Shown one piece after another: positions 1,396 to 50,189 of a stretch of 64,000 bases of DNA. Positions within the stretch are counted from its first letter, which is position 1. Each line of letters opens with the position of its first letter. This DNA is from Candidatus Dojkabacteria bacterium (lineage in GTDB: Bacteria > Patescibacteriota > Dojkabacteria > J137): the NCBI GenBank assembly GCA_040006935.1, contig JBDTVZ010000002.1, positions 144,174 to 208,173 of the forward strand. Direction: 5' to 3'. The notes beneath the pieces are model-generated. The model did not search any database. It had not been told where the DNA came from and saw nothing but the letters and a program-made list of their open reading frames with translations. A program made the position numbers and the translations under genes.

Positions 1396-1396
1396 T

Positions 1397-1530
1397 GTTA
1401 TTACGAGGATAGCCTGTCCTGCTTGCCTTACCTGTCGGCGCAGACACGGACGGCAGGCAGGTCTAATGATGGCAGTCTCGTGACATTTCTAATGGGATTG
1501 CTTCGTCGTTTCACTCCTCGCAATGACAAC
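1397..1530. mobile_element. MITE-like GC-rich element, copy 1, with imperfect terminal inverted repeats (gttattaCGAGGAt … tCCTCGCAATGACAAc) and an internal GC palindrome (ACCTGTCGGCGCAGACACGGACGGCAGGCAGGT).
   Basis: It is alignable to 14314..14400 (gggattgcttcgtcRtttcaYtcctcgcaatgacaac, about 90% identical) and partly to 50190..50295. It is GC-rich in an AT-rich context. Confidence 0.55.
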
Positions 1531-8345: not shown

Positions 8346-9395
8346 ATGAATAAAGAAAACAAAAAAACTTCCGATGAGACTTTAAAAAAAATAAAATCAG
8401 CAGAAAAAATTCTAATAGTTCCCGATGGAAAAAGAGTAGACCATGACTGCATATCTTCTGCAGTTGCTCTTAAACTATTTCTAATTAAATTAGGGAAAGC
8501 AGAACCAATGATTTGCATTTTTGGAAGCGTTCCGAATTATATGAAAGAGTTTGTTACAGAAAATGAAATTGTAACAAATCATATTGCTGATGTTGATTTT
8601 AATAGCTATGACTTAATATTTCTTCTCGATGCTCCTCAATGGGATCGAGTACTGAGTGATGATTACCAAACAGTTTTAGACAAGGTTCCAATGGAGAAAT
8701 TTATAAATATAGATCACCATGAATATGCGACTATTTATCAAACAAATCCTGAAACTGTGGTTGTGGAGATTGGAGAACCCTCTACAACAAAAGTTCTTTA
8801 CGACCTTATTATTGAACCTTCTGGGATAGAACTGGATAAAAATATTGCCGAAATGCTATATGTTGGACTTGTTTCCGACAGTCAGTTTTTCAGATTTGGA
8901 ATAAAAGAAGATACCTTGAGTTTTGGTCAGATATTATTAAACACAGGAATTGATCATTACAAAATCTTAAACATGTTAACTCGAGTTGAGAAAGGTAGTA
9001 TTGATTATTTAACTAGTGTATTAAATCATATAAGATATTATCCAGAAATAAAATTAATGACGCTGATCATCAGTGAAAAATTAATTAGCGAACTTGATGG
9101 TAAACTTGGAGATGACTGGATGGATAAGGAATATTTTCACTATTTCAATGACAACGTTGCTGCGAAGATAACCGGTTTTGACTATTGTGTTACGTTTAAG
9201 GTGAGTTCAAAAGGTACAAAAATTAGTTGGCGATCCGCAAATTATAATACTATTGCCCTAAAAGATGTTTTAGAGAAAATGAATTTTTTTGGTGGTGGAC
9301 ACAGAAATGCTGGCGGTGGTGTGATTAGTGATTCAACACCAGAGGAAACAGAAGCAGAATTTGTAGCAGAATTGACAAAAACATTAAGTAATTAA
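8346..9395 (+). CDS. DHH-DHHA1 family phosphoesterase (NrnA-like oligoribonuclease / pAp phosphatase).
   Basis: It has the DHH motif (NIDHHE), the aspartate motifs (LLDAPQWD) and the DHHA1 glycine motif (GGGHRNAGGG). Confidence 0.7.
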   Translation: MNKENKKTSDETLKKIKSAEKILIVPDGKRVDHDCISSAVALKLFLIKLGKAEPMICIFGSVPNYMKEFVTENEIVTNHIADVDFNSYDLIFLLDAPQWDRVLSDDYQTVLDKVPMEKFINIDHHEYATIYQTNPETVVVEIGEPSTTKVLYDLIIEPSGIELDKNIAEMLYVGLVSDSQFFRFGIKEDTLSFGQILLNTGIDHYKILNMLTRVEKGSIDYLTSVLNHIRYYPEIKLMTLIISEKLISELDGKLGDDWMDKEYFHYFNDNVAAKITGFDYCVTFKVSSKGTKISWRSANYNTIALKDVLEKMNFFGGGHRNAGGGVISDSTPEETEAEFVAELTKTLSN

Positions 9396-12570: not shown

Positions 12571-13473
12571 ATGCGTGAAAATTCCTTAAGATTATACACA
12601 AAAATATTCATTATTATTCTAGCACTTCTAGTATTTTCACCTTTTTATAAAATTTCTGCTCATAACGCAACTAGCTCACCTTGGCTATATATAAACTCAC
12701 AAGCAATTACTGAAGATGATGAGAATCCAACACCAAACCCATCTAAACTAAAATGGGGAGAGCATTATTTAACTCAACAATTTAATCCAGGTGATACTTT
12801 AGAAGTGCAAGTCGATAAAAATGTGATTGTAAGAGATTTAGAAGTAAAGGAATCTAGTATTATTGAACATTTTGATCTAACACTTCCAGATAACTCTGTT
12901 AAGACTTTTAAAGATAATTTTTCAGAGAGCTTGAGTTCAACCGGGAATTACTTTTTAGATGTTAAAGTGAGTAAGAATACTGGTGAAGAGTTAATCCTAG
13001 AGAGTGTAATGTTTATAGTCGGGAATAAAATAGAGCAGTCTAAGTTTAAAGTAAACGGAACTGAAATTGATATTACCTCTGCGGCACCCACCTTTTTATT
13101 GAACAATGACTTTAATTTAGTCTTTGAAGTTATAAATCCAGAGAATAATAAATATAATTATCAATGGGATTTAGGTACTAGTCAAATTAAAGAAGGCGAT
13201 AGAGTAGAATATAATTTTGAAACTGCAAAAATACCTATATATGTTGTACTGAGAACAACTGATAAATCGACTGATATTTTTATCGATTCCTTTGTAAGAA
13301 TAGATTCTGACAGTGAGAATGTTTTTAAAATTCCAGCACCACCAGTTAAGGTTCCTGATGACCCTGCCCGAAGCTCTAATGTTTTCACTCCCCTAGTTCT
13401 AATTTTGGGAGGAATAGCAGGTTTAGGAATCATTTTATTAATTTGGTTTTTAATTATCAAGAAAAGGGATTAA
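12571..13473 (+). CDS. Hypothetical extracellular protein with a C-terminal transmembrane anchor. The start is moved to the internal Met at 12571, because the called start at 12538 overlaps the divergent neighbour's start.
   Basis: There is an N-terminal signal-like helix and a C-terminal LVLILGGIAGLGIILLIWFLIIKKRD anchor. The 12538 start would overlap 11332..12564 by 27 nt. Confidence 0.45.
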   Translation: MRENSLRLYTKIFIIILALLVFSPFYKISAHNATSSPWLYINSQAITEDDENPTPNPSKLKWGEHYLTQQFNPGDTLEVQVDKNVIVRDLEVKESSIIEHFDLTLPDNSVKTFKDNFSESLSSTGNYFLDVKVSKNTGEELILESVMFIVGNKIEQSKFKVNGTEIDITSAAPTFLLNNDFNLVFEVINPENNKYNYQWDLGTSQIKEGDRVEYNFETAKIPIYVVLRTTDKSTDIFIDSFVRIDSDSENVFKIPAPPVKVPDDPARSSNVFTPLVLILGGIAGLGIILLIWFLIIKKRD

Positions 13474-13506
13474 CTCTGATATAATCAGCAGATTAAGAAC
13501 ATTACT

Positions 13507-14295
13507 ATGCTAAAGCTAGAAAAACTATTTATAAAATTAACTGAAGAAAATAAAGAAATTGTTTCTGGAGTAAGCTTGGAATTTAAACCAGGAGAGGTTC
13601 ATTTACTAAATGGAAAGAACGGTTCGGGGAAAAGTACATTGGTAAATTCATTAATGGGTAATCCAATTTATACAATCACCTCCGGATCTATTTCTATTGA
13701 AAATGAAGAATATTCCGACTTCACAATCTCCAAAATAGATGGGGAGTCTGTTCAAAGAAACTTAAAACTTACCGTGCCTGACGGACGGCAGGAAACTTAT
13801 GACTTAAAACTTTCTTTGATGGAACCAAATGAAAGATCTTTGGCTGGAGTATTCTTAGCTAACCAATACCCAATGGAAATCCCTGGGGTAAGTTTGAGTA
13901 GTTATTTAAGGCTTATATATAATTCACGAAGGCCTAAAGAAGAACAGTTAAATGTATATAAATTTAAACAATTTTTAAAAGAGAGGGCAGAGATAATAAA
14001 ATACCCAGAAGCATTACTATTGAGAAATCTTAATGAAGGGTTTTCTGGAGGAGAAAAGAAAAAAACAGAAATTTTACAAATGCTGATTTTAGAACCACGC
14101 TATGTAATGTTGGATGAAATAGACTCTGGACTAGATAAACATTCAGTTAAAGAAGTTTTTGAAGGTTTAGTTAACTTCAAGAAAGAATTTTCAAATACTT
14201 GTTTTATTATAATTACTCACTATGACAAGGTTCAAGAGTATTTAACTCCAGATTTTGTTCATGAAATGGAGAAGGGGAAGCTAATTATAAATTAA
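13507..14295 (+). CDS. sufC: Fe-S cluster assembly ATPase SufC. It carries an in-frame insertion of about 30 aa (…NLKLTVPDGRQET…) derived from a GC-rich repeat element.
   Basis: It is colinear with E. coli SufC. Walker A is GKNGSGKST, the ABC signature is NEGFSGGEKKKTEILQMLILEP, Walker B is VMLDEIDSGLD, and the H-loop is ITHY. The extra segment lies between the positions equivalent to LSPEDRA and GIFMAFQYP. Confidence 0.9.
   Translation: MLKLEKLFIKLTEENKEIVSGVSLEFKPGEVHLLNGKNGSGKSTLVNSLMGNPIYTITSGSISIENEEYSDFTISKIDGESVQRNLKLTVPDGRQETYDLKLSLMEPNERSLAGVFLANQYPMEIPGVSLSSYLRLIYNSRRPKEEQLNVYKFKQFLKERAEIIKYPEALLLRNLNEGFSGGEKKKTEILQMLILEPRYVMLDEIDSGLDKHSVKEVFEGLVNFKKEFSNTCFIIITHYDKVQEYLTPDFVHEMEKGKLIIN
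13758..13812. repeat. In-frame GC-rich mini-repeat inside sufC (aacttaaaacttaccgtgcctgacggacggcaggaaacttatgacttaaaactt). It encodes NLKLTVPDGRQETYDLKL.
   Basis: It has the same element as 445..500. The insertion is not present in canonical SufC at this position. Confidence 0.65.
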
Positions 14296-14313
14296 GAATT
14301 ATTTGTCATTGCG

Positions 14314-14400
14314 AGGATCCGCTCGAGCGGAGACGAAGCAATCTCATTAAGATACCAGGTCACGGGATTGCTTCGTCATTTCATTCCTCGCAATGACAAC
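14314..14400. mobile_element. MITE-like GC-rich element, copy 2. Terminal inverted repeats are TGTCATTGCGAGGA … TCCTCGCAATGACA. Nested inverted repeats are GACGAAGCAATC / GATTGCTTCGTC, around a central CCGCTCGAGCGG palindrome.
   Basis: Seen directly. It lies 3' of sufC. Confidence 0.6.
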
Positions 14401-14473
14401 AATTTTCTGGACTTGAACTCAAATCCTGTATATACTATTATTTAGCACTTTTAATTACACTTATAATATTCTT

Positions 14474-15754
14474 ATGGCAAGAACAAAAACAACCTCCTTT
14501 AGTAGCCTTGAGGAATCTCCTTTATTAAGCAGGAAGCCAGGGCAGAGTACAATTAATGTAAATAAATTTGATCAAGCAAGATTTACAGAGATTGTAGATG
14601 ATGGTCCTAGCACTAGTCCAGTTAAAATAATTATTTATATAGTTATAGTTATAGTTGTTGGTGTAGGGGCAGCTTTACTACTTAGAAGCCTTATTACAAA
14701 CAATCAGCCAACTACAAATACTGGTACACCACCTGCAGCTAATTCTAGTAAAGTTACTATAGGTACAGTTACTAAAGCTGATAGTACCGCAACAAGCTTA
14801 GCAGCAAATGAAGATTATACAGATTCTGGAATCACTAAAGCGGGGGATCCAGCAACTACCGGAGTAAATACAACAGTTGATACATTAGATTTTAGTAAAT
14901 ATACTACTTTTGCTAGACTAGAGTTTGGATTAACAGGAAATAATGGGAAGCTTCCAACAACCAATTTAACTTACTCCGCAGCTGAAAAATCTTTAACAGT
15001 AAACATTCCTGAGCTTAAAAGTGTAAGTACAGATTTACAAAAACAAATCGATATAAACAATATTATTAAAAATATCACATTTGATTCGGCAACAAAGAAC
15101 TTTAAAATCACTTTTGTTGAAGATACAAAATACAGAGTAGTTCCAAATACTACAAATTTAACAATTGATTTCAAAACAGTGAAAGAATTGGCTAAACCAG
15201 TAACTGCTACTACACCACCACCAGTTACACCAACTCCAACACCAGCCATTGTGCCCCCTACAACTACTGATCCTGCAAGACCTGCTTCACCACACTTTAC
15301 TAATGATTTTTCGCAAGATAAACAATATGTAGTGAGTAGCCTCACAGGAGATACAATTTCTCACAATATTTACTACTTTGATGATTTGAATACATCTTTT
15401 GAGTTTAGTTGGGGACAAAAGAATTCCGTAGGTGATAATTATGTACCTAATGCAACTGCATATTACGATACTTCTGCACCAAGTGGAAAAACCTACTTGA
15501 TAGTAGAAATTTCTAATTTATCTGGAGAGATTATGTCAGCTAACGGAGTTACTGGATTAAGCGCTGGGGATATTCAAAATAAAACTGGAGCTAATACGAC
15601 GGGAGCTAATCTTGTTCGAATAGATCTACTTTCATTTACAGGTGGAGTAGCAAAGTATAGATTCGAACTGAAGGATAAAGCTGACTTTAAACTTTGGACT
15701 CAAAAAACAGTAGATAATTTAACTCAGGTTATAAGCATAAATATAGAAGATTAA
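14474..15754 (+). CDS. Hypothetical membrane-anchored surface protein with a Pro/Thr-rich linker.
   Basis: There is an N-terminal TM helix (IIIYIVIVIVVGVGAALLL) and a TTPPPVTPTPTPAIVPPTTTDP linker. No family was recognised. Confidence 0.5.
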   Translation: MARTKTTSFSSLEESPLLSRKPGQSTINVNKFDQARFTEIVDDGPSTSPVKIIIYIVIVIVVGVGAALLLRSLITNNQPTTNTGTPPAANSSKVTIGTVTKADSTATSLAANEDYTDSGITKAGDPATTGVNTTVDTLDFSKYTTFARLEFGLTGNNGKLPTTNLTYSAAEKSLTVNIPELKSVSTDLQKQIDINNIIKNITFDSATKNFKITFVEDTKYRVVPNTTNLTIDFKTVKELAKPVTATTPPPVTPTPTPAIVPPTTTDPARPASPHFTNDFSQDKQYVVSSLTGDTISHNIYYFDDLNTSFEFSWGQKNSVGDNYVPNATAYYDTSAPSGKTYLIVEISNLSGEIMSANGVTGLSAGDIQNKTGANTTGANLVRIDLLSFTGGVAKYRFELKDKADFKLWTQKTVDNLTQVISINIED

Positions 15755-20936: not shown

Positions 20937-21392
20937 TTAATTTGCTTCTTTTGTTACTGGAGCAACGTTTATAATCTTATCTTCACTTTCTCTATATATT
21001 AGAGCTTTTGTTGAGAAAATAATCACAGTATCTCCTTCTTGTGCATCTGCATAGAAAGTAGCATTTTGAGATTTAACTTCCTCAAGATTAGCAATAGTCG
21101 CTATTGTTGGACTTTCGTTTGGAACAAGAATAATTTTCTTGATTTTATCTGTTAATGCATTATATTTTGCTGTGTCTTGCGCTGTCTGATCAGTACCTGA
21201 AGTTGATGCAAGTGGTTCCATTCTAGGTTTTATTACAAAAAGATACACACCACCACCTACAATAACTACTATTAAAATTAGTATTATAAATTTATATAGT
21301 AAATCGTTTTTTTTCTCTATTCTCTTCTGTTTAAAGGGATCTTGAAGCGTATTCATAATATTAAATGTTAAAATAATTAATCTGCTAACCAA
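20937..21392 (-). CDS. Small membrane-anchored hypothetical protein. Its start overlaps the stop region of the third giant gene, and it sits between the giant-gene array and secY.
   Basis: It is 151 aa with a single TM (FIILILIVVIVGGGVYLFVI) and a hydrophilic C-terminal domain. There is a 16-nt overlap with 21377..25951. Confidence 0.5.
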   Translation of the reverse strand: MVSRLIILTFNIMNTLQDPFKQKRIEKKNDLLYKFIILILIVVIVGGGVYLFVIKPRMEPLASTSGTDQTAQDTAKYNALTDKIKKIILVPNESPTIATIANLEEVKSQNATFYADAQEGDTVIIFSTKALIYRESEDKIINVAPVTKEAN

Positions 21393-24300
21393 GTATAGCA
21401 GTAGTACTTTCCTATCTCAACAGGTGTTGTGAGGTTAATTTTAAATGAACTAGAACTAATTTCAGATACGTTTATCTTTTCTACAGAACTAAGATCTGAA
21501 CAATCTGAAGTCTTAGTAGGTGCTGTATCAGACTGACCTATGATTCCTACACTTACGAAAGGTTGATATGGATATTGTATAGGAAAACTAATTGTTTTGG
21601 ACAAAAGAGGGTAAGTTCCATCGGATTGCATATAACCCCATCCACTTATTTGGAACTGGTTTGGTTGGTCCACTTGATTATCTTTATCAAAACGTATTCT
21701 AGATATAACCAAACCATTTAAACTTCTCCATTCTTGTGATACAGAATCTCGGAATTCCAAGGTTTTAGAAATATCATTTATTCTAAAACCAATTTCATCA
21801 GTTGTAGATCCAAAAAGGATTTTCCCTTCAGATGAAACTTTTATGTAATTTAATCCATTTTTACTTTCAATATCTTTATTGACTTGTAAATTAGCTCCAT
21901 TTTCATCTACTTGATCAACACCGATACCAACTTTTGTATCAGCTAAACTAAATACATTATCGCCTTTTTGTTCCCATAAAAGTGATTGTGTAATTTGATT
22001 ACTATCCGCCAGATTTGTCCACTCTCCTTCCTTATTTTTAAATTGAACTTTTCCTGCTTCGTTTAATTTAAATCCTGCCTCTCCATTTTCACCAAGATTT
22101 ATTTGTACTTTATTATTTATTCCATCGTTGTTTCTAGTTATCATTACGCTTATGAAAGATATTCCCTCACCAGTATGTGGCTCTTGGGCTATTCCTATAT
22201 TGGTTTCTCCATCTTCAGCTTTTTTACCAACTCCTTCAATATCACTTGCAGTTATTTTATCTCCAATTGAAATATCGCCTTTAACTTTTACGGGAACTTG
22301 CCCCACCATACTCATTAATTTCCAATTAGGATCGTTATTGTTTACATCTTCAACGCTTGTAATATTTCCTACAAAACCAGGCGAAGTACTTATTACTCCA
22401 ACGATTGCTTTATCTCCTTCTTTTGCTTTTAGAATACTTTTAGATTCTGTTTCATCTAACTTAACAATATCTCCCGCTTCAATTGAAGTATCGTTTGTAT
22501 GCATATACTCTGCGTAATCAGCACCTACGCTAAACCATCCTCCTTGTTGACTTGTATATGCTCTACCCGTAGCATCGAATCTAAATAATTTTCCATCTGG
22601 TTGACTTGCCGTTGCTGGACCTGTACCTGTTTGGTTCGCAATATAAAATATATCCTCAGCTTTTGTTTGACCTAAGTCCAAAATATCTATGTCTGTCCTT
22701 GTTGAGGAATATGGTGCAACCTGACCTCCATATGTATAAAATTTACCATTGTATATACCATAAGCTGGCCCTTGACGACCAGTTCCTCCTGCTGGTAAAG
22801 CTTGAATCCAACTAGCTGTTTGTATATTGTAATAATATGATGCATTTAATAAAACTCCCGCTCCTGCATATCCTCCCCATAAATAAACCTTATCCTGATA
22901 TGCAAACAAAGTGGGTCCTGCAACAACACCTGTTGAAGGACCAGCACTCCAAGTAGCAGCCTGGATATCATATATTTCGAAAAGTGCTGAAAACCCTGAG
23001 CCTGGGATTGTCCCTCCAAGAACGTACATTTTACCATTCAATATGGTAGACCCCATTCCATATCTTGCAGTGCCTCCAGTTGTTCCAGTTGTCCATGTAT
23101 TTGCTCCGAAATCAAATATACTCATTGTATTAGTTACTGTAGGACAGGCTCCAGCACTATTACATCCTCCCCATAAGTACCACTTACCATTATAAACAAC
23201 TGATGAAGATCCAGATCGAGCAGTTCCTCCAGTTGTTCCTGCTGACCATGTATTAGTTGCTATATTGTAAATTTCCATTGTATTTAAAATACTTGCGCAT
23301 GCTGCTACATCACATCCTCCCCAAATATAAATTTGGGCATTATACAATGCAGACATATGTTCATAGTGTGTTACGCTGCTACTAGCTCCTGTAGACCAAG
23401 TATTACTTGCAATATTATAAATATACATAGTCTTGTCTCCTCCAGTTGCATCTCCTCCATAAACATAGAATTTACCTTGATATATCTCACCAGTTGGTGC
23501 ATTTAAAGTAGACGTTTGTGTTGCTCCCACAGTCCATGCTCTTGTTGTGTATTGAGTATTCTCATTTGTTAAATAAACTAATCCTAAAGGTTTTCCTGTT
23601 ATAGTCAAGACATTACTAGTATCCAATTTTAAACGCTCCTCTGAACCAACATTAATGCTTAGTACAGTATCTCTGATGCCTAGATCATAAATATCAGTTG
23701 TGCTTAAGATATTACTTCCAGCACTATCCAATCCATCTACTTCAAATATTTTTCCATTATATAAAGCTGCTACCTGAGCGTATCTAGCAGTACCTCCTGC
23801 TGTCCCTGTACTCCATGTGCCTAATGCCAAACTATATATATCTACAGTATTAACTCCTGATGAGGTAAAACCATGTACACTCAACATATTTCCATTACTT
23901 ATAAACAAGGAACCATTTCTTCTTGCTGTACCTCCTGCCGTGCCAGTGCTCCATGTGGCTGTTGGAATATCGTAAATGTCTAAAGTATTTGTTACTGCAG
24001 CAATAAAACCCCCGTAGTTATACATTTTTCCATTGTATATCACCGACGTTTGAGACCTTCTAGCAGTTCCTCCTGTAGTTCCAGTAGTCCAACTATTTGC
24101 TCCTATATCGTAAATATCTACAGAGTTTAAGTTAGTTGAGTTATTAGCAGAACCACCCCATATATAAATCTTTCCATTGTAAATAACAGAACTCGCTTGA
24201 CACCTTGCAGTACCTCCAGATGCGCCCGTACTCCAACTATTATTTGCAACATCGTAAATATCTACTACTGTGGTTGTAGATGTTAAGGCTGAGTTTGTGC

Positions 24301-25951
24301 AGCCAGTAACATAGTACATTTTCCCGTTATAAGTTTGACCTGTATGTGCCAGTCTAGCTGTACCTCCTGCTGTTGCAGTAGCCCAAGTGTTTGTTAATAA
24401 ATCATAAACATTCATTGTATTAACAATGGTTGATAATGCCGTATTTGTCGCACCACCCCAAATGTATAATTTAGAATTGTAAACTAAACCGATAGAGTAC
24501 GCTCTTCCGGTCCCTCCTCCAGCACCTATGCTCCAACTTGCAGCAACATTTGAAGAGAGATTTTTATTAATATTCAATCCTCTAAGTATATTTATATTAT
24601 TATAGCCATAGGCATCTATTTGACTACCTGTGATTGAATTTATACTGAGACCTTGAGAGCTAGTGATATTGCCATTGCCATAATAAGTTCCATTGCTATC
24701 AATCCCTACTCTTAAAGCATTGTTAATAAAGATTTTATCAAATTGCTGAGCAATAGTTGCACCATCACCTCCTATCTTACTGGCGATTTGCTCTACAACG
24801 GTCTGGCCTGTAGTCCAGCTTACTGCCGGAGAAACAGAAAGTTGAGTTGAAGTAGGAACTCCATCAATACGTGCGTAAGTTGTACCATTTACTAAAACTA
24901 AATTACCTACATCAAAATTTGTTGTTGAAGATACTACTAGGTTTTTTGTCGTTGTCCCAGTTCCTGAGGTTGTTGTTGATCCATTGCCCACCGTCAAAAG
25001 ACTTCTAACATCTCCTTTAAAATTACTAAGTCCATCCGCAGTAAGATTTAAAGCAATTGTTAATCCTCCGTCAGTTTTTAAAGTATTAGCAGCAGACCTA
25101 TATAAAGTCGCATCTCCTAATAGTAAACCTCCTGTAGCGCCTGTTTGGCTTAAAGCAAGCTGACCCGCATTATTCAATACAAATTTATCTGTACCCGAAC
25201 TTTGTAATTGAAGAATATTCCCTGAACCTTGTTGATTTACTCTAATTGCACCTGTAGAGCTTGGCGTACTTTGTATTGTGGTTGGGCTCAATTGAACAAA
25301 TCCATCTGTTGATGCACCACTCAAAGTTTGAGCGCTGAAAACCGTTGGGACGCTCATTAACCCAGTACGTGTGAAAGTTTCTATTCCCCCTGGTGGTGAT
25401 GCTAAAGTTGTCCATGCACCACTCGGATCAAAAGTAATTTCTAAAAATAGATCTGTTCTATCAAAATTTACTCCTGTAACGGAATCGGCATCTCCATTAT
25501 CATCAAATAATTGACAAAGAGTAGAAGAAGTAACTGTTGAAGCCCAGGAATGGGTTCCAGATGCAGATGCAACACAAACAGAATTAATTCTTAAGTCGAA
25601 CCTTCCTGCACCTGTGCCTATTTCTACATTTGTAAATAACTCTTCAAATAAAAGATTATTTCCTGCAGTTGCTGTTCCACCGCTTACAACATTCCAAATT
25701 CTAACTCTAAAATCGCAAGTATCTGCTCCAGCCGACACACATGCTGGACTTCCAGTTGCAGGTGCGAGTCCCGTAGTCTTGTTTGTGATTCTACTTTGAA
25801 AGTTAATAGTATTATTTATAGTTGCATGAACCTGATGAGTTGAGCTAAAGATAAACATTATAAAAACCACAGATAACAGACGACAGACGACAGATATTAT
25901 TCTTCTGTGATCTGTCTTCCGTATTCTGTTTTCTATTAATTTATAATTCAT
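21377..25951 (-). CDS. Giant membrane-anchored surface protein, paralogue 3 (1524 aa). It has a conserved N-terminal module, two six-bladed Kelch-like beta-propellers and a conserved C-terminal module.
   Basis: The ORF is uninterrupted. There is an N-terminal TM helix. Twelve blades repeat W(S/T)TGTAGGTAR….YNGK(I/M)Y(I/V)WGG…(L/V)DIYD. A linker FGIRDTVLSINVG lies between the propellers. The C-terminal roughly 450 aa is colinear with the other two paralogues (…KLFRFDATGRAYTSQQGGWFSVGADYAEYMHT…GVISTSPGFVGNITSVED…). Confidence 0.85.
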   Translation of the reverse strand: MNYKLIENRIRKTDHRRIISVVCRLLSVVFIMFIFSSTHQVHATINNTINFQSRITNKTTGLAPATGSPACVSAGADTCDFRVRIWNVVSGGTATAGNNLLFEELFTNVEIGTGAGRFDLRINSVCVASASGTHSWASTVTSSTLCQLFDDNGDADSVTGVNFDRTDLFLEITFDPSGAWTTLASPPGGIETFTRTGLMSVPTVFSAQTLSGASTDGFVQLSPTTIQSTPSSTGAIRVNQQGSGNILQLQSSGTDKFVLNNAGQLALSQTGATGGLLLGDATLYRSAANTLKTDGGLTIALNLTADGLSNFKGDVRSLLTVGNGSTTTSGTGTTTKNLVVSSTTNFDVGNLVLVNGTTYARIDGVPTSTQLSVSPAVSWTTGQTVVEQIASKIGGDGATIAQQFDKIFINNALRVGIDSNGTYYGNGNITSSQGLSINSITGSQIDAYGYNNINILRGLNINKNLSSNVAASWSIGAGGGTGRAYSIGLVYNSKLYIWGGATNTALSTIVNTMNVYDLLTNTWATATAGGTARLAHTGQTYNGKMYYVTGCTNSALTSTTTVVDIYDVANNSWSTGASGGTARCQASSVIYNGKIYIWGGSANNSTNLNSVDIYDIGANSWTTGTTGGTARRSQTSVIYNGKMYNYGGFIAAVTNTLDIYDIPTATWSTGTAGGTARRNGSLFISNGNMLSVHGFTSSGVNTVDIYSLALGTWSTGTAGGTARYAQVAALYNGKIFEVDGLDSAGSNILSTTDIYDLGIRDTVLSINVGSEERLKLDTSNVLTITGKPLGLVYLTNENTQYTTRAWTVGATQTSTLNAPTGEIYQGKFYVYGGDATGGDKTMYIYNIASNTWSTGASSSVTHYEHMSALYNAQIYIWGGCDVAACASILNTMEIYNIATNTWSAGTTGGTARSGSSSVVYNGKWYLWGGCNSAGACPTVTNTMSIFDFGANTWTTGTTGGTARYGMGSTILNGKMYVLGGTIPGSGFSALFEIYDIQAATWSAGPSTGVVAGPTLFAYQDKVYLWGGYAGAGVLLNASYYYNIQTASWIQALPAGGTGRQGPAYGIYNGKFYTYGGQVAPYSSTRTDIDILDLGQTKAEDIFYIANQTGTGPATASQPDGKLFRFDATGRAYTSQQGGWFSVGADYAEYMHTNDTSIEAGDIVKLDETESKSILKAKEGDKAIVGVISTSPGFVGNITSVEDVNNNDPNWKLMSMVGQVPVKVKGDISIGDKITASDIEGVGKKAEDGETNIGIAQEPHTGEGISFISVMITRNNDGINNKVQINLGENGEAGFKLNEAGKVQFKNKEGEWTNLADSNQITQSLLWEQKGDNVFSLADTKVGIGVDQVDENGANLQVNKDIESKNGLNYIKVSSEGKILFGSTTDEIGFRINDISKTLEFRDSVSQEWRSLNGLVISRIRFDKDNQVDQPNQFQISGWGYMQSDGTYPLLSKTISFPIQYPYQPFVSVGIIGQSDTAPTKTSDCSDLSSVEKINVSEISSSSFKINLTTPVEIGKYYCYTWLAD

Positions 25952-25956
25952 AATTT

Positions 25957-28900
25957 CTAATTACCTAGAGCTCTCCAAGTGTAACAGTAATACTTACTCC
26001 CCAAGGAGGGCTGATCGGTTCTTATATTTAAATTAAATTTAGTTGTGTCTATAGAATAAGGTGTTATTGTGACAATAGACTCATCAAATATACAACTACT
26101 CAAATTTGCTGGCTCTGTTGTTGAAGATCCAGAAATATCTGTAATTACAACAGGAATACTTCCATAGTTCTTTCCAAACCCTATTGATTTCACTAAGGAT
26201 GTAGTATTATCTCCTTTAATATATCCCCAACCGCTCACTTGTTCAACGTTTTTAATTTCAGTATTAGACCCATCAGGATTAACTTTAGAATTAGATATAA
26301 CTAATCCAGATAACTTTTTCCATTCTTGAGTTATAGAGTCTTTAAATTCTAAGGAATTATCATTAGAATTTAATCTAAATCCAATATCTGAAGAATTGAA
26401 AGTTATACTTCCCTCGCTTGCAGATATTTTTACATATTTTAAACCATCTTTAATTTCAATATCTCCTGCTATCTGTAACTTACTTCCATCCAGATTCTCT
26501 TCTGGTACTCCAATACTTGTTACTCCATTGTTATTATCATATATATTATCTCCAATTTTTTTCCAAATTACACTAGTATCCACACTAATCTGCTGATCAA
26601 TATTTTTCCAATCTTCTTCTTTATCTTTATATTGCAATTTACCTTCATTGCTTAGTCTGAAACCAGCCTCACCTTCTGTTCCTAAGTTTATTTGAACTTT
26701 ATTATTTATTCCCGAATTATTTCTAGTTATTAATACACTTATTCCTCCTATACTTTCTCCATCAAATGATTCTTGAGCTATTCCAATATTATCTTCTCCC
26801 TCCTCTACTCTCATACCAATCCCTGCCTGGCTACTGATTCCAATTCTATCTCCTACTTTTATAGGACCATTTTCCCTGCTTACTTTCACTGGAACTTGTC
26901 CTACCATGCTTAATAACTTCATATCGGCTCTTTGTCTGTTTATATCTTCCACTGAGGTTATGTTTCCTACAAAACCAGGATCTGTACTTATCACACCTAT
27001 TACCTCATCTCCTTTGCTTGCTTTTGATATACTTTTTCCGTCCGACAAATCTAATTTAACAATATCACCTGCTTGTATATTTGTGTCCGAAGTGTGCATA
27101 TACTCAGCATAGTCAGCTCCAACGCTAAACCAACCTCCCTGAGAACTTGTATAAGCTCTTCCAGTCGCATCAAATCTAAACAATTTAGAATCTCCACCTC
27201 CAACTCCTTGTTGATTTGCAATGTAAAAGATATCTTCTGTTTTTGAGATTCCAAAGTCATAAATATCCATTGTATTAAGTTGTGTTCCACCACCTGTATT
27301 CAGTCCCCCCCATCCATAAAGCTTAGCATTCCACATTATTGTAAATTGACCATACCTCGCAGTACCCCCTGCTGTTCCAACACTCCAAACATTTCTTTCT
27401 ATGTCATAAACATCCATTGCTGTCGATGCTGCAGTTGTAAATCCAGCCCAAGAAATCAATTTCCCATTATATTCGACAAGTTGTCCTAGGTATCTTGCAT
27501 TCCCTCCTGCTGTTCCTGTTGTCCATGAGTTTGTTACCAGATCATAAATATCCACTGTATTTGTTGCGGCTGCAATAAAACCTCCAAAATTATACATTCT
27601 GTTTTTATATAAGACTGCACTATGCCATCTTCTAGCTGTTCCCCCTGCCGTTCCTGTACTCCAGCTATTTGCAACTGGATCATAAATATCTACTGTATTT
27701 ATATTTACAGTACCATTAATTCCTCCCCATATATAAATTTTGGCATTCCAGAGTACAGCAGATGCCCCACCTCTTGCGGTTCCCCCTCCTGTCCCTGTAC
27801 TCCATGTATCTGTTGCTATATCGTAAATATCTACAGCATTAGTTACAGATGAAGATGCTATGTTTAGTGTTCCCATAATAATATATATTTTCCCATCGTA
27901 TATAGTTGCAGATGCAGCCCACCTTCCAGTGCCTCCAGCTGTTCCTGTGCTCCAGGTACTAGTTTTAAGGTCAAAAATATCTAAAGTATTATAATAAGCT
28001 GTACAGCCCGTGGTTGTACAACCTCCCCAAATATACATCTTGTCATTGTACTCTACCGTTACTCCATAGTTTCTAGCTGTTCCTCCCGTTGTTCCTGTTG
28101 TCCATCCAGGAGCAGTATATTGACTTCCTTCTTTTGATATATACTGTAAGCCTAATGATTTTGAAGAGAGAGTTATTACATTATTTTGGTCAATATTTAA
28201 CCTTTGCTGATCGCCTACATTCACTTGCAAAACTGTATCTTTAATTCCAAAGTCATAAATATCCATTGTATTTATTGCTCCTGATGCGTCTCCTCCCCAG
28301 TTATACCACTGGTTATTAAACACAGCACTTGCTGGATGTATTCTCGCCGTACCACCTGCTGTTCCTGTACTCCAACTATCTAATGCAAAATCATAAATAC
28401 TTAATGAATTTAGTGCAGAACCATTAGTTCCTCCCCATCCATACATTTTATTATCAAATACCGTAGCTACATGATCTTGTCTTGCGGCACCTCCAGCTGT
28501 TCCTGTTGCCCATGAATTAGCTGAGAAATCATAAATATCCATTGAATTTACTACACCACCATTATTTCCTGCCCAGACATACATTTTGTCATTATAGACA
28601 ATAGCTGTATGTTGAAACCTTGCAATTCCACCCGTTGTCCCTGTTGTCCATGAATTAGCTGCGAAATCATAAATATCCATTGTGTTTGAAACACTGCCGG
28701 TAGATCCACCCCAGATATACCATTTATTATTATAAACAACTCCACTAGCTGCATCTTTCGCAGTACCTCCTGTTGCCCCTGTACTCCAGGTACCAAGTTT
28801 TAAATCATAAATATCCACAGTATTTATTCTCGTTCCTCCACTATTAAAACCACCCCATGCATACATTTTATCGTTAAAAACTGTTGCTACATGGTATCTT

Positions 28901-30537
28901 CTAGCAGTACCTCCTGCTGTTCCTGTTGTCCAAATTTTTGATGAGAAGTTATAAATATCTAAAGAATTGATCACGGATCCTGTAGAACCTCCCCATACAT
29001 AAAGATTTCCGTTATAGGTAACTGCTGTATGTGAGTGCCTTGCTACACCGCCAGTTGTTCCTGTACTCCAGCTTCCAGCTACATTAGAATACTCTGCTTT
29101 ATTTATAATTAAACCTTTGGTTGTATTTAAACCTACAGTGGCCGAACTCCCCATATTTAAACTATTTGTTCCAGTATCAATAGCAAAAGGATTTGTTTTT
29201 CCTCCACCAATAGATTGGTCTCCATAGGTGGTAGAATTTGTACTAGAACCTACTCGCAATCCATTGTTTGTAAACATTCTGTCGTAAAGTAAAGCTACAT
29301 TTGTTCCATTTCCTCCTATGTCTGGAGCTGTATATTCAACTACTGTTTGACCATTAGACCAGCTAACCGCTGGGTTCACTGTGAGTGCTGTACTACTTTC
29401 TACTTTAGTTATAATTGCATAAGTAGAACCATTTATAAGAACTAGATTGCCTACATCAAAATTAGTTGTACTTGAAACTACTAGAGTAGTTACACTGCTA
29501 CCCGTTCCAGTTGCAGTTGTGCTTCCATTTGAAACAGTCGTAATTGCTTTTAGGTTTCCTTTAAATTCTGAATAACCTAGCACTGAGAATTCTGTACTAT
29601 TAGTCCCATCTACAATTAAGTTATCATCAGTTTTTAATACATTAGTTGTTGAATTATATAAATTCACATCTCCACCAATTACTAAACCTCCTGTAGCCCC
29701 AGTTTGAGCAAGAGCCAATTGGCCTGCATTACTCAAAACGAATTTATCGGAACCCGCTTGTTGTAATTGAATAACGTTGCCACTTCCTGTTTGATTAACT
29801 CTGATTGCTCCTGAAGAGCTGGAAGTGCTTTGAACTGCACTAGGATTAAGTTGAACAAATCCTGTTTCATCGAGTCCATTAATTGTTTTAGTTGCATAAG
29901 CTGAAGGAACGGAAGTTAAATTAGTCCTTGTAAATATTTCTATTCCTCCTGGTGGAGAAGCTAGAGTAGTCCATGCACCGCTAGGATCAAAAGTTACTTC
30001 CAAATATAGATCGGTCCTTGCAAAATCAATCCCTGTAGTTGTATCGGTATCTGCATTATCATCAAATAAATTGCAAACAGTTGCAGATGCACCTGTAGTC
30101 CCCCACTGATGTGTTGAGCTGGAAGTAGCTCCACACACTGAGTTTATAGATAAAGTAAAGATTCCATTTCCATCACCTAATTCAACATTATTAAATAATT
30201 CTTCATACATTAAGTTGTTACCCGCAGTTGCTGTTCCTCCACTTACTAAGTTCCAAATCCTCACTCTAAAATCACAAGTATCTGCACCAGAAACTACACA
30301 AGTAGGTGGGGTACCAGAAGTAATATTTAAAAGTGTTGATTTCACAATCATCTTTGTTTGGAAATTAATTACATTATTAATTGCCGCATGGATCTGATTT
30401 GTTGAGATTAAGTTTAGAGTTATGATTGTTAACAACACAAAGATCATAGATAACAGATGACAGATGACAGACCTTATCAATCTATTATCTGCAATCTGTG
30501 ACTTATTTTTTATTCTTTCATTTCTTAATTCTTTCAT
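25957..30537 (-). CDS. Giant membrane-anchored surface protein, paralogue 2 (1526 aa), with the same architecture as 21377..25951.
   Basis: The ORF is uninterrupted and lies 5 nt from its neighbour. It has the same N-terminal (CDFRVRIWN..SGGTATAGNNL) and C-terminal (GWFSVGADYAEYMHT) modules and 12 Kelch-like blades. Confidence 0.85.
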   Translation of the reverse strand: MKELRNERIKNKSQIADNRLIRSVICHLLSMIFVLLTIITLNLISTNQIHAAINNVINFQTKMIVKSTLLNITSGTPPTCVVSGADTCDFRVRIWNLVSGGTATAGNNLMYEELFNNVELGDGNGIFTLSINSVCGATSSSTHQWGTTGASATVCNLFDDNADTDTTTGIDFARTDLYLEVTFDPSGAWTTLASPPGGIEIFTRTNLTSVPSAYATKTINGLDETGFVQLNPSAVQSTSSSSGAIRVNQTGSGNVIQLQQAGSDKFVLSNAGQLALAQTGATGGLVIGGDVNLYNSTTNVLKTDDNLIVDGTNSTEFSVLGYSEFKGNLKAITTVSNGSTTATGTGSSVTTLVVSSTTNFDVGNLVLINGSTYAIITKVESSTALTVNPAVSWSNGQTVVEYTAPDIGGNGTNVALLYDRMFTNNGLRVGSSTNSTTYGDQSIGGGKTNPFAIDTGTNSLNMGSSATVGLNTTKGLIINKAEYSNVAGSWSTGTTGGVARHSHTAVTYNGNLYVWGGSTGSVINSLDIYNFSSKIWTTGTAGGTARRYHVATVFNDKMYAWGGFNSGGTRINTVDIYDLKLGTWSTGATGGTAKDAASGVVYNNKWYIWGGSTGSVSNTMDIYDFAANSWTTGTTGGIARFQHTAIVYNDKMYVWAGNNGGVVNSMDIYDFSANSWATGTAGGAARQDHVATVFDNKMYGWGGTNGSALNSLSIYDFALDSWSTGTAGGTARIHPASAVFNNQWYNWGGDASGAINTMDIYDFGIKDTVLQVNVGDQQRLNIDQNNVITLSSKSLGLQYISKEGSQYTAPGWTTGTTGGTARNYGVTVEYNDKMYIWGGCTTTGCTAYYNTLDIFDLKTSTWSTGTAGGTGRWAASATIYDGKIYIIMGTLNIASSSVTNAVDIYDIATDTWSTGTGGGTARGGASAVLWNAKIYIWGGINGTVNINTVDIYDPVANSWSTGTAGGTARRWHSAVLYKNRMYNFGGFIAAATNTVDIYDLVTNSWTTGTAGGNARYLGQLVEYNGKLISWAGFTTAASTAMDVYDIERNVWSVGTAGGTARYGQFTIMWNAKLYGWGGLNTGGGTQLNTMDIYDFGISKTEDIFYIANQQGVGGGDSKLFRFDATGRAYTSSQGGWFSVGADYAEYMHTSDTNIQAGDIVKLDLSDGKSISKASKGDEVIGVISTDPGFVGNITSVEDINRQRADMKLLSMVGQVPVKVSRENGPIKVGDRIGISSQAGIGMRVEEGEDNIGIAQESFDGESIGGISVLITRNNSGINNKVQINLGTEGEAGFRLSNEGKLQYKDKEEDWKNIDQQISVDTSVIWKKIGDNIYDNNNGVTSIGVPEENLDGSKLQIAGDIEIKDGLKYVKISASEGSITFNSSDIGFRLNSNDNSLEFKDSITQEWKKLSGLVISNSKVNPDGSNTEIKNVEQVSGWGYIKGDNTTSLVKSIGFGKNYGSIPVVITDISGSSTTEPANLSSCIFDESIVTITPYSIDTTKFNLNIRTDQPSLGSKYYCYTWRALGN

Positions 30538-30544
30538 TTCTTAA
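30513..30544. repeat. Tandem 16-nt duplication (ttctttcatttcttaa x2) spanning the stop of giant gene 1 and the start of giant gene 2.
   Basis: Seen directly. On the minus strand it reads TAAGAAATGAAAGAA twice: the first copy carries stop plus ATG, and the second is in-frame coding (LRNER). Confidence 0.6.
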
Positions 30545-33500
30545 TTTGCTATAGCTATCCAGTTAAAACAGATGTATTTATTTGGAATATCTGCTTCATT
30601 TGTTGTAATAGACATATCAAACTTATTATCTGACTTAATATTTACTTTACTTACAATATTTTGATCCAACACGCTATCACATTGAGTCGGATTATTTGGT
30701 TCATTTTCTGAATAACCAATAATATTAGAAAGTACTGCAATCTTTTCTCTAACTGTACCTGGAATAGTTATTTCTTTAGACAAGCTTGTTGTTGAGCCAT
30801 CTCCTTTTAGAAAACCCCATCCACTTATCTGATAACTATTTTGTACTTGCAGCACATTTTCATTATTTACTTGCATCCTACTTATAACCATTCCAGATAA
30901 ACTTCTCCAATCATTTGCACCAGCATCACTGTATTCAATTCCTCCCGTAGTTTCGTTTAGTCTTATACTCAAAGGACTGGTTGATTCTCCTATTTTAATT
31001 ACACCATTAGCAGTTATTTTCACAAACTTTAAACCATCCATTACATCTATTCCTTGAGATATCTGGAGTTTACTTCCACTTAAATTTTCTTCATCTACAC
31101 CAATACTTGTTACCCCCGAACTATTATTAAAAATATTGTCCCCTATTTTTTCCCAAATCATACTATTATCGACCTCAACACTTTGTGCGATATCTTTCCA
31201 GTTTCCTGATGTATCCTTAAATTGTAAATTTCCAGAATTATTTAATCTAAATCCTGCTTCCCCGTTTTCTCCAAGGCTAATTTGAACTTTATTATTAATT
31301 CCCTCATTATTTCTAGTTATTAACACACTTATTTTTCCTATAATATTTCCTGAATAATTTTCTTGGGCTAAACCGATATTGCTATCTCCAGGGTCCGCTT
31401 TCATTCCCACTCCAGGTACGGATGAAGATGTTATTGGATCTCCAATCTTGATTTCTCCATTTTCAGTACTTACTTTCACAGGTACTTGTCCTACCATGCT
31501 AAGTAATTTCATATCAGTTCGATTATTATTAATATCTTCTATATTCGTTATGTTTCCAACAAATCCTGGATCAGTACTAATCACACCTATAACATCATTG
31601 TCATTTGCTTTAGAAGTTTTTATAAGGCTTTTTGCATCGACACTATCTAGTTTTACAATATCTCCTGGTTCAATAGTTGCATCTTTTACATGCATATATT
31701 CTGCATAGTCAGCACCTACGCTAAACCAACCTCCTTGTTTGCTTGTATACGCTCTTCCCGCAGCATCAAATCTAAATAGTTTTCCATTATCTGGTCCACC
31801 ATTTTGTTGATTAGTTATATAAAATACATCTTCTGATTTAGAAGCCCCTATATCAAAAATATCTAATGTATTCAGAACTGTAGTTCCTGCAGAATTTAAT
31901 CCACTCCAATTGTAAATCTTTCCACTATAAACTGTTGATACATGCTCATAACGGGCTGTTCCTCCTGCTAGGCCTATACTCCAAACTGCTCTCTCTGTAT
32001 CAAATATCTCCACAGTATTTACTGCTGCACTTGTAAATCCATAGACAGCATAGAATTTACCATTGTAGGGTACAAATCCATGTAATTCTCTAACAGTAGA
32101 TGCTGAAGTTCCAACTGCCCATGTATTTGTTTGGAAATCATAAATATCAACAGTGTTAGTTACTGCAGCGATAAAACCTCCAAAATTATACATTTTCCCA
32201 TTATAAAGAACTGCTGTTTGAAACCTTCTAGCAGTTCCTCCTGCTGCTCCTGTACTCCAGCTATTTGCATTTATGTCATAGATATCTAAAGAGTTAAGAT
32301 TTGATCCTGTATAACCAGCCCAAATATATATTTTCCCATTATATAAGACAGAAGAAGCAGCGCAACGACCCGTACCTCCAGAGGTTCCTGTACTCCAACT
32401 ATCTGTAACTATGTCATATATATCAACTACAGTTGTGTTTGCTGTTAACAAATTGTTTGTACAACCCGTTACAAAGTAAATTTTCCCATTATAAACCTGT
32501 GCTTGGTGAAAATCCCTTGCTGTTCCCCCTGCGGTTCCTGTTGTCCATGTATTTGTTAGGAAATCATAAATATCCATTGTATTCAATTTAGTTGTTAAAG
32601 CTGAACTGGAAGATCCTCCCCATAGATACCATTTGTTGTTATATTGGGCTCCTGCTGCTCCAGTTCTAGCTGTTCCTCCTGTAGCACCTGTAGTCCAAGC
32701 TTGTGAAGTATATTGTGCCGCCTCTTTTAATGGATAAACTAAGCCAAGAGCCTGCCCTGTTACTGTTAAAATATTATTTGTATCCAATTTTAGTTTTTCT
32801 TGGCTTCCTACATTTACTTGAAGAACAGTACTGTTATCGCCTAAATCATAAATATCCATTGTATTTATGTGGGAACCAGTATTTCCTGCCCAATTGTAAA
32901 TTTTCCCATCGTATAATACAGCAGAATGTTGACTCCTTGCTGTCCCTCCCGTAACGCCTGTTGTCCAAGCATCTGTAGCAAAAGAGTAAATATCTACTGT
33001 GTTTATAAGCGATCCTGTTGTTCCTGCCCAACTATATATTTTCCCACCATAAACAGCTGAAGTATGTAAAGCTCTAGCAGTTCCTCCTGCTGTTCCTGTA
33101 CTCCAGGTATCTGTAGCAATATTATATATATCTAATGTATTTATTGCTGTTCCTCCTGAATTTAAGCCAGCCCAATTATAAATTTTCACATTATATAAAT
33201 TTGATGTACTTTGATATCTAGCCGTACCTCCTGCTGTTCCTGTTGTCCAACTATTTGCTACAAAATCATAAATATCTAATGTATTTATTGCTGTTCCTCC
33301 TGAGTTCAATCCTCCCCAGCTATACATCTTTCCACTGTAAACTATTGCTGAATGCTGACTTCTAGCAGTACCTCCTGCTGTTCCAGTTGTCCATGCATCT
33401 GTTGCAATATCATAAATGTCTACTGTATTTAAAGCTGTTCCTCCAGAGTTTAACCCTCCCCAGCTATAAATTTTTCCATTGTATACAACCGAAGTATGCT

Positions 33501-48908: not shown

Positions 48909-49358
48909 ATGTTAACGAAATCTATTCAATTAGTAAATGGAACTCAAGAAATCGAAATTAAAGAAGATATGGAGATTAACGCCATGTTTGTTGGACGTGA
49001 TTCTGATGAAGTGAAAATTAAGCTAGACTTTGTACATTCAAAACCAGGACTAAAATCCAGAATTAATATTAAAGCAGTTGTGTTTGATAAAGCTAGGTTT
49101 GACTTAGAAGGAATATTAAAAATAAATAAAGGTGCTATTGGAACAGATACTTATTTAAAGATAGATTGCTTAGTAATGAGTGAATCTGCTTTTGCCAGAG
49201 CTGTACCAAGTTTGGAAATTAAAGAAAGTGAAGTAAAAGGAGGGCATGGAGCAACAATTGGATATTTAGATCCAATGCAAACTTACTATTTAACTTCAAG
49301 AGGGATGAGTAAAAAGAAAGCAGAGAATATATTGGTCGATGCGTTTATTAGGAATTGA
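48909..49358 (+). CDS. Stand-alone SufB/SufD family C-terminal domain protein (149 aa). It may be a fragment or degenerate remnant.
   Basis: EIKESEVKGGHGATIGYLD matches SufB/D (EADDVKCSHGATVG), and TYYLTSRGM matches LFYLRSRGI. It is far shorter than the roughly 400 to 500 aa of SufB/D. Confidence 0.55.
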   Translation: MLTKSIQLVNGTQEIEIKEDMEINAMFVGRDSDEVKIKLDFVHSKPGLKSRINIKAVVFDKARFDLEGILKINKGAIGTDTYLKIDCLVMSESAFARAVPSLEIKESEVKGGHGATIGYLDPMQTYYLTSRGMSKKKAENILVDAFIRN

Positions 49359-49397
49359 TCCTTCCACTTCCACTTATCCTTAACCTCCCACTTTCTC

Positions 49398-49751
49398 TTA
49401 TACTACTGATTCCATCGATCTCATTAACCCTGATAACATTTTGGAAATCGTTGTCAAATCATTATAGACATTCTCGTAAGTTTCTTCAGAAATATGATTT
49501 TCTAATTTCAGTAATCTCATTATGGCAACAGTTTCTTGAGTCGAACCTCTAGCAATATTGTAGAAATTCCTCTTATCTTTTTTACTCATTTTCCCTGCTC
49601 CCTCTGCTATGTTTAAAATTATACTTGTAGCAGATCTAAATAATTGATCTCTGAGATTTGAATTTATTTCTTTATTTTTGAATGAATCTTTAAGTTGTTT
49701 ATATATGTCTTCAGATTTCAAGTAAACTGGGAAATTTTCAAATGCAAACAT
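49398..49751 (-). CDS. Four-helix-bundle protein of the 23S rRNA-intervening-sequence family (DGR Avd-like fold).
   Basis: The family signature LRDQLFRSATSIILNIAEGAGKMSKKDKRNFYNIARGSTQET is present. Confidence 0.6.
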   Translation of the reverse strand: MFAFENFPVYLKSEDIYKQLKDSFKNKEINSNLRDQLFRSATSIILNIAEGAGKMSKKDKRNFYNIARGSTQETVAIMRLLKLENHISEETYENVYNDLTTISKMLSGLMRSMESVV

Positions 49752-49963
49752 ACGATAGATTTTAAATATTAAAACTGAATCTTATCCTAATCTGTAGAAT
49801 ATTGCATTGTGCTGCAATACAAAATAGAGAAGAATAATTAGTAGGAGCGGAAGATTAAGGATAAGTGGAAGATTTTAATGCCAGCGAATGGACTTCCAGC
49901 ACAATTCACTTCGTTCATTTGCGGGATAAACTTCTCGTCCCTGTATTTTTTGTATTAAGTTTA

Positions 49964-50045
49964 TGCCAGCGAAGGGACTCGAACCCATACCTCTTGCGAG
50001 ACTAGTTCCTAAGACTAGCGCGTATACCAATTCCGCCACGCTGGC
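49964..50045 (-). tRNA. tRNA-Leu (anticodon UAG), a type II tRNA with a long variable arm. CCA is not encoded.
   Basis: The reverse complement is GCCAGCG-TG-…-CTAGT-CTTAGGA-ACTAG-variable arm-GGGTTCGAGTCCC-TTCGCTGGC-A. The acceptor stem is 7 bp, the anticodon stem 5 bp, and the T-loop is GTTCGAG. Confidence 0.85.
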
Positions 50046-50189
50046 AATTTAATTAAAAGACGATTAATTAAAAATTAAAAGCTTTTAACGTTCGTGAATT
50101 ATATCATCCTGAACATTCAAAAAGAAGTCCCTATTTAAGAATTACTTTAATGACTTAATTACTTGTTAACTCAAAATTTAATCCAGGCT

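Follow-up and report, generated by a model that had tools for sequence, protein, structure and literature searches.

Tagged palindromic repeats behind genes of a Candidatus Dojkabacteria bacterium: probable members of the CGTC superfamily with a hairpin structure of their own

Described repeats and the copies in the window

Among the described tagged palindromic repeats, the GTAG REPs are mobilised by RAYT transposases (IS200/IS605-type, Y1 HUH) and are largely species-specific. A second group, the CGTC-tagged REPs, was described by Di Nocera et al. (2013; BMC Genomics 14:522, PMC3733652). These repeats carry a 5' tag CGTC, often TGTC and with CCTC allowed, followed by a perfect stem of 8-9 bp whose first pairs are A-T and T-A, a loop of 4-5 nt and an unpaired 3-nt tail that is mostly CCA. 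They occur mostly as dimers, often heterodimers, with spacers of 20-100 nt, are sometimes nested in longer palindromes, and lie near the 3' ends of ORFs in five phyla (PMC3733652). The superfamily includes the Rickettsia RPE-4/-6 repeats as well as the Neisseria ATTCCCGC...GCGGGAAT repeats and, unlike the GTAG REPs, its members are reported to flank no transposase gene (PMC3733652). No later study of CGTC repeats was found in the searchable literature, and full-text searches with the DNA strings and translated peptides of the unit described below returned only primers and noise.

The present analysis concerns a 64-kb stretch of Dojkabacteria DNA, referred to here as the window, with a G+C content of around 33%; it belongs to a 299-kb contig of a metagenome-assembled genome. 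Its only non-coding G+C-rich islands of such kind are three copies that the first-pass annotation had described as a MITE-like family of elements about 100 nt long. The copies are indeed non-coding palindromic repeats of one family, and copies 1 and 2 behave as insertions. What is repeated, however, is a hairpin unit of 32-43 nt: an arm unit of 30-40 nt is all that copies 1-3 have in common and their interiors are not shared. As argued below, the copies are probably tagged palindromic repeats of the REP kind that belong to the CGTC superfamily and that form, judging from the published descriptions and peptides, a structural class apart from CGTC-1 to CGTC-4. The superfamily is thus a known, if poorly understood, one; the novelty lies in the structural variant and in its host range.

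The 11-mer TCGCAATGACA has four exact matches in the window against an expectation of 0.5, a number reached in none of 100 shuffles. Covariance model R1, three of whose matches belong to its own training alignment, matched exactly four units in the window and none beyond these. The features are as follows.

1396-1529: copy 1, a doublet of a decayed left unit and a canonical right unit
1396-1479, plus strand: copy 1 left unit, decayed; read directly, unmatched by R1, and pairing with the right unit in the fold
1418-1461: long inner hairpin of copy 1, CCTGCTTGCC...GGCAGGCAGG, at the inner-hairpin position of the left unit
1468-1479: degenerate tail of the copy 1 left unit, GATGGCAGTCTC
1494-1529, minus strand: copy 1 right unit, canonical; R1 57 bits (member of the model's alignment)
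14303-14399: copy 2, a clean inverted doublet of two units
14303-14345, plus strand: copy 2 left unit; R1 46 bits; inner hairpin TCCGC-TCGA-GCGGA
14346-14363, no strand assigned: spacer between the copy 2 units, unconserved in the other copies; spacers vary among genomes
14364-14399, minus strand: copy 2 right unit; R1 55 bits; inner hairpin AT-GAA-AT
50196-50216, no strand assigned: G+C-rich hairpin CCTGCCTGC...GCAGG adjoining the copy 3 unit
50233-50271, minus strand: copy 3, a solo, slightly degenerate unit; R1 18.4 bits, E = 0.037; outside the model's alignment
50311-50330, no strand assigned: free-standing palindrome AACCTGCCTGCAGGCAGGTT, 9 nt past the stop codon of the DUF2207 gene

Copy 2 is a non-coding element of 95 nt with perfect terminal arms of 14 nt, TGTCATTGCGAGGA at 14304-14317 and TCCTCGCAATGACA at 14385-14398; its start, earlier placed at 14314, lies at 14304. 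The nested inner arms previously reported are present as GACGAAGCAATC (14332-14343) and GATTGCTTCGTC (14366-14377), as is the palindrome CCGCTCGAGCGG, although this is not central to the element, being the inner hairpin of the left unit. The predicted fold of copy 2 is a three-way one, with an energy of -53 kcal/mol (z = -10.7) on either strand.

In copy 1 the right arm is exact, its unit reading TTGTCATTGC GA G GA GT-GAA-AC GA C GAA GCAATCCC. The left arm, as originally described, is a degenerate one (TGTTATTACGAGGA). The head of the left unit, TGTTATTACGAG, is two transitions away from TGTCATTGCGAG and is followed by GA. The interior differs from that of copy 2, as had been observed, through the long CCTGCTTGCC...GGCAGGCAGG hairpin accommodated inside the left arm. 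Copy 3, said to keep one arm, consists of the single unit TTGTCATTGC GA Gcc GA AC-GTA-GT GA ggC GTG GC-ATCCC, and its left terminal repeat is absent. All four window units bear the tag TGTC and end in the tails CTC or CCC.

A second G+C-rich palindrome motif, CCTGCCTGC...GCAGGCAGG, occurs three times in the window (1418-1461, 50196-50216 and 50311-50330) and, in a Gottesmanbacteria contig (L199, 6189-6208), again forms the inner hairpin of a unit. The free-standing palindrome at 50311-50330 has the same motif as the copy 1 inner hairpin. Local alignment of the hairpin beside copy 3 with the copy 1 interior scores 20, compared to a mean of 12.8 and a maximum of 24 for shuffled sequences, so that the weak resemblance between the two is suggestive only. 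A further candidate, located where two convergent genes meet (54745-54803, minus strand), would be a divergent unit, but it is unmatched by R1 and may be due to chance. It reads TGTC-ATCCC-GAG...CGAG-GGAT-CTC, as if the outer stem ATTGC/GCAAT had become ATCCC/GGGAT.

As first noted, each copy is positioned just 3' of a gene: copy 1 starts right at the end of a stop codon, copy 2 some 8 nt past one and copy 3 downstream of the DUF2207 gene. What had been proposed as an in-frame mini-element beside copy 3 belongs to the DUF2207 protein, whose C-terminus is rich in glycine; the G+C-rich in-frame stretch at 50339-50427 codes for GGGWSGGGGSFGGFSGGGGGGGSSGGF and is ordinary coding sequence with no inserted element.

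A conserved, co-varying hairpin

The unit, 32-43 nt in length, has the general form YGTC-ATTGC-GA-[variable inner hairpin]-GAA-GCAAT-CYM. A 5' tag (YGTC) precedes a 5-bp outer stem (ATTGC/GCAAT), within which a purine-rich internal loop, GA opposite GAA, leads to an inner hairpin whose length varies from 7 to over 40 nt. In many units this hairpin has another GA/GA pair beside it and a GNA triloop at its end; the tail is CYM. Two forms dominate. In the first the inner helix is continuous, for example GAG-CGNAG-CGAA, while the second has an extra G:C pair and tandem GA/GA, for example GAG-GA-NN-GAA-NN-GA-CGAA. Three window arms, the two of copy 2 and the right one of copy 1, are classic instances of this second form (alignment A2). 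The commonest short form is ATTGCGAG-CGAAG-CGAAGCAAT.

Scanning of viral contigs with the pattern GATTGCTTCG-N(1-30)-CTCGCAATGAC matched at least 120 of them. Among the matches listed, the heads of these viral-contig units are TGTCATTGCGAG in 114 of 252 and CGTCATTGCGAG in 95 of 252, and the tails are CGAAGCAATC followed by TC, CA or CC. After GCAAT, units ending in CGAAGCAAT carry the tails CTC (77), CCA (53) and CCC (23), again among the matches listed. Partner units, which lie outside the selection imposed by the search pattern, have head and tail conserved at 90% or more.

The hairpin co-varies. At inner-helix positions 2-6, counted from the outside, Watson-Crick pairs make up 52-83% of 237 unique units, compared to 25-37% after shuffling, with no shuffled value above 46%. 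All four pair types are found, and the unpaired cases at positions 2-3 are almost all G.A or A.G. Pair counts in alignment A2 give 19 double-sided changes, for which shuffles yield 5.0, and none of 500 shuffles is as high. The two free positions of the most widespread 33-mer behave likewise, being G..C in 88 and A..T in 26 of the 125 matches listed. Single units, by contrast, are rated unstable by nearest-neighbour folding, which gives -1.5 kcal/mol (z = +0.6), no better than shuffles, and the case for a hairpin therefore rests on covariation and not on energy. These energy models do not credit sheared G.A pairs and GNA triloops.

Triloops are present in 90 of 221 unique fillers, 48 of these being GNA and mostly closed by C:G. 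C:G-closed GNA triloops are a motif of the unusually stable DNA mini-hairpins studied by Hirao and Yoshizawa, and their occurrence here hints that a single-stranded DNA form of the unit matters. A search of the window and ten repeat-rich loci against Rfam 15, with gathering and E-value thresholds, assigned no family and gave only sub-threshold generic hairpins. A reading of the GA/GAA loops as K-turns was considered by hand and set aside, since the strand register does not fit.

Comparison with the CGTC REPs, as they are characterised in PMC3733652, reveals a series of likenesses. Both have a YGTC tag, a stem starting with AT, tails drawn from CCA, CTC and CCC, and an arrangement as inverted dimers that are often heterodimers; both may be nested in species-specific palindromes, lie near the 3' ends of ORFs, occur in several phyla and lack an associated transposase. 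The differences are structural and distributional. Where the published stem is a perfect one of 8-9 bp, the outer stem of the present unit extends to 5 bp only and gives way to a conserved GA/GAA loop and then to an inner hairpin that varies, and the short form ATTGCGAG-CGAAG-CGAAGCAAT matches the CGTC stem and loop lengths only if G.A pairs are counted. The five phyla of the published account compare with at least 15 here, CPR lineages included, in addition to phage contigs. None of the supplementary REP-encoded peptides given for CGTC-1 to CGTC-4, which imply the stems ATTCCCGC, ATTCTGAA, ATGCCGGGC and ATTCCGGTG, matches the ATTGCGAG stem. A direct connection is nevertheless provided by the alphaproteobacterial lineage UBA6376, where one position of homologous composite elements is occupied by the present unit in some and by GTCATTCCGGTGCTTGACACCGGAATC in others; the translation of GTCATTCCGGTGCTTGACACCGGAATC, VIPVLDTGI, is a peptide listed for CGTC-4. 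It is the shared features together with these hybrid dimers, containing a CGTC-4-type unit, that lead us to place the repeats in the CGTC superfamily.

The GTAG REPs and the REPINs they form are similar in other respects: an imperfect palindrome of 20-40 nt with a 5' tetranucleotide, inverted doublets giving long hairpins, no target-site duplication, and an intergenic location just 3' of genes. The tag here is YGTC and not GTAG, however, and the near-identity of the present unit across phyla contrasts with the largely species-specific GTAG repeats. Coxiella QMITE2, considered as a possible member of the same family, is built on a GTAG REP and was accordingly excluded.

Distribution, pairing and empty sites

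The first-pass annotation would have counted against mobility a motif confined to the window sites, in combination with identical sequence at orthologous sites of distant relatives. The arm is far from confined, occurring without a single change in at least 15 phyla. The exact 33-mer GATTGCTTCGTCNTTTCANTCCTCGCAATGACA occurs in at least 120 genome stretches from species-representative genomes of this breadth. The carriers listed include Desulfobacterota, Planctomycetota, Nitrospirota, Helicobacter, Micavibrio, Rickettsiales, Gammaproteobacteria, Chryseobacterium and Ignavibacteria, as well as Firmicutes, Spirochaetes, Latescibacterota, Verrucomicrobia, Dehalococcoidia, Melainabacteria, Aminicenantes, Rifleibacteriota and five CPR lineages; Cyanobacteria are also among the carriers of the letter-for-letter unit. 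Among the matches listed, the 33-mer of the copy 1 right unit has 88 identical occurrences in genomes from other phyla, and that of the copy 2 right unit has 26. Doublets are present on finished plasmids of Novosphingobium, Methylobacterium, Methylosinus, Methylocystis, Legionella, Calothrix and Aulosira, and units also occur in Helicobacter canis prophage records. With some 24 fixed positions and few states of the inner hairpin, identical 33-mers are not in themselves proof of recent transfer. Their presence in distant phyla does show that the unit is very strongly constrained.

Some units are solo, but the commoner arrangement is an inverted pair in which the tags face outward and the two units are separated by 6-50 nt, the REPIN/BIME-like form represented by copies 1 and 2. 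An inverted upstream partner accompanies 78 of 119 genome units retrieved by one arm, a situation seen in about 1% of shuffles, and one third of units are solo. The partner usually carries a different inner hairpin, and the unconserved spacer is most commonly 12-25 nt. Within a single genome, a whole doublet with its flanks can form a repeat family, and in some Desulfobacterota the doublet is nested inside a longer species-specific palindrome. An unusual arrangement is seen in a viral contig (L046, 1802-1925), where four units in direct tandem with a 33-nt period have the open frame IASQARNDDEQ and may represent an in-frame repeat array.

In related Dojkabacteria, copies 1 and 2 are missing from the orthologous spacers. 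The spacer from the ABC ATPase gene to the next gene, which contains copy 2, is 178 nt in the window and around 100 nt, with no unit, in three relatives (L122, L123 and L248) in which the orthologous protein is 69-72% identical. Similarly, the copy 1 spacer past the ATP-grasp gene, 186 nt in the window, measures 50, 30 and 93 nt in three relatives (L245-L247), in which the conserved motif TGTACACTNAC follows directly. Since the orthologous spacers are empty, copies 1 and 2 are lineage-specific insertions directly 3' of genes. The reverse situation is seen in L123, whose contig ends inside a unit (8885-8913) in the RecO-SecY spacer, the same spacer being empty in the window and in L122; a contig breaking within a unit suggests that the repeats disturb short-read assembly.

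Copy number in this lineage is low, with one unit found in 107 kb of relatives compared to four in the present 64 kb. As the three copies have no interior in common, nothing points to a recent amplification in this genome, and the copies may have arrived through recombination or horizontal transfer instead of transposition. A search of JGI metagenomes for the empty copy 2 site gave no matches, and a protein-guided metagenome scan recovered seven loci, none carrying the unit.

Alternative readings and a possible mode of spread

The alternative that survives best, though we consider it unlikely, is that the unit is a functional RNA module, a portable hairpin that ends, protects or processes transcripts, as a terminator-like element, a 3' stabiliser or an intercistronic processing site, and that has been selected and spread by phages or recombination. 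It would suit the location of the window copies, each of which comes straight after a stop codon and precedes the next promoter-like sites, and the very stable fold of the doublet. On the other hand, close relatives do without the unit in their orthologous spacers, the hairpin has no T-run behind it, and no terminator-like site was called in the region 13400-15400. Among solo units of viral contigs, one orientation relative to genes outnumbers the other by approximately 2:1 (50 vs 26), which leaves room for a role at the RNA level, yet both orientations are used, and the equal frequency of G:T and A:C helix mismatches among the 237 unique units provides no strand-specific wobble signal. Strict conservation of the primary sequence over some 24 nt across phyla exceeds what a generic hairpin would need, the C:G-closed GNA triloops are a signature of DNA mini-hairpins, and the Rfam search found no family. 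In favour of an RNA role, certain homologous loci in related phage contigs have a unit immediately upstream of the ribosome-binding site, and one homologue (L059) has an unrelated hairpin swapped in at the same site; several other homologues have none. Di Nocera et al. also argue that many REPs work as RNA (PMC3733652).

In the phage family concerned, a mini-ORF ahead of the MSKVKE...KEGLPKEAFAIV gene repeats the first residues of that gene. Between the two lies a unit, an unrelated hairpin or the ribosome-binding site alone (loci L003, L006, L036, L128 and L029 compared with L001, L105, L017, L005 and L059).

Considerably less probable still is a classical MITE, that is, a deletion derivative of an insertion sequence moved in trans by a DDE transposase, through cut-and-paste with target-site duplications. 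The perfect 14-nt terminal inverted repeats of the short, non-coding copy 2 prompt such a reading, as does presence/absence polymorphism among related genomes, and with the Correia/NEMIS, Chunjie, Nezha and QMITE1 elements the copies share their small size, lack of coding capacity, terminal inverted repeats, hairpin fold and polymorphism. They differ from these elements in lacking target-site duplications, a parent insertion sequence and a common interior, and in the frequency of solo half-elements, which account for one third of units. What would be the terminal inverted repeat is itself a co-varying hairpin. Across 104 distinct doublets of 64-136 nt from many genomes, no excess of direct repeats was found at offsets 0-3 for k = 2-5, nor any conserved flanking motif beyond the tag base; copies 1 and 2 have no target-site duplication either. 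The absence of border duplications speaks against a DDE-type MITE.

The neighbourhoods of the units are equally unsupportive of a MITE. When the 3,522 ORFs located up to 2.5 kb from units at 240 loci were clustered all against all, no cognate insertion sequence emerged, nor did these loci show a RAYT gene with units at its flanks. In the viral set the only recurrent families are phage structural ones (portal, capsid, GTA), while in the genome set no family is common to more than 4 of 120 loci, among the loci listed. The window likewise contains no insertion sequence, and the earlier statement that it holds no transposase agrees with our scan of its ORFs, in which no transposase, integrase or HUH domain was found.

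That the repeats are chance similarities or an assembly artefact, as the L123 contig breaking inside a unit might suggest, has next to no likelihood given the excess of exact 11-mers, an identical copy 2 in an independent Logan assembly, and the presence of the motif in isolate genomes and finished plasmids.

For the REP-kind repeats of the CGTC superfamily that we favour, a mode of spread may be proposed. The unit would act as a single-stranded DNA hairpin, with the tag and stem being read by a trans-acting enzyme, a step suggested by analogy with the GTAG REPs and their RAYT transposases and by the DNA-type triloops. The doublet would be the unit of spread, and we infer, on the same analogy, mobilisation in trans of REPIN-like units. 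A copy inserted just past a stop codon would become part of the upstream message, at its 3' end, where the very stable fold of the copy may protect that message or attenuate read-through.

A bolder version of this proposal, which we hold only tentatively, is that the ATTGCGAG...CGAAGCAAT unit represents an undescribed class of hairpin repeat whose approximately 24 conserved nucleotides are held nearly constant, in at least 15 bacterial phyla and their phages, by one widespread trans-acting partner reading single-stranded DNA. The partner might be an enzyme that recognises structure, of an overlooked HUH type or some other, or else a universal factor of replication or repair. If true, few mobile DNA motifs conserved in sequence would have as wide a distribution in bacteria, and the unit would offer a handle on what moves CGTC repeats.

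At a practical level, a CPR bacterium harbours what is probably a structurally distinct relative of the CGTC-tagged repeats, and its conserved core and co-varying inner hairpin together make a precise search model with which repeat load may be compared to gene content across genomes, as a way towards the mobilising enzyme. Predicted ORFs can extend across units, since only one of the unit's six frames is closed; units also break assemblies, and add very stable hairpins directly behind genes.

Two further features of the window lie apart from the repeats. The region 49360-49900, beside a tRNA gene, looks like a small inserted cassette. It contains a gene of the 23S_rRNA_IVP family (49398-49751, minus strand; four-helix-bundle, Avd-like) bracketed by a 26-nt inverted repeat that is 88% complementary (49367-49392 and 49846-49871). 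A short SufBD-core ORF (48909-49358) lies right before the cassette and, past the 23S_rRNA_IVP gene, a partial copy of the 3' end of tRNA-Leu is present at around 49879-49897, the tRNA-Leu gene itself being at 49963-50046 (minus strand). Elsewhere, three giant paralogues of 1524, 1526 and 1982 amino acids are encoded in tandem at 21377-36489 (minus strand). They have periodic repeats of 138-150 nt, and their orthologue in a relative has Kelch/beta-propeller Pfam matches.
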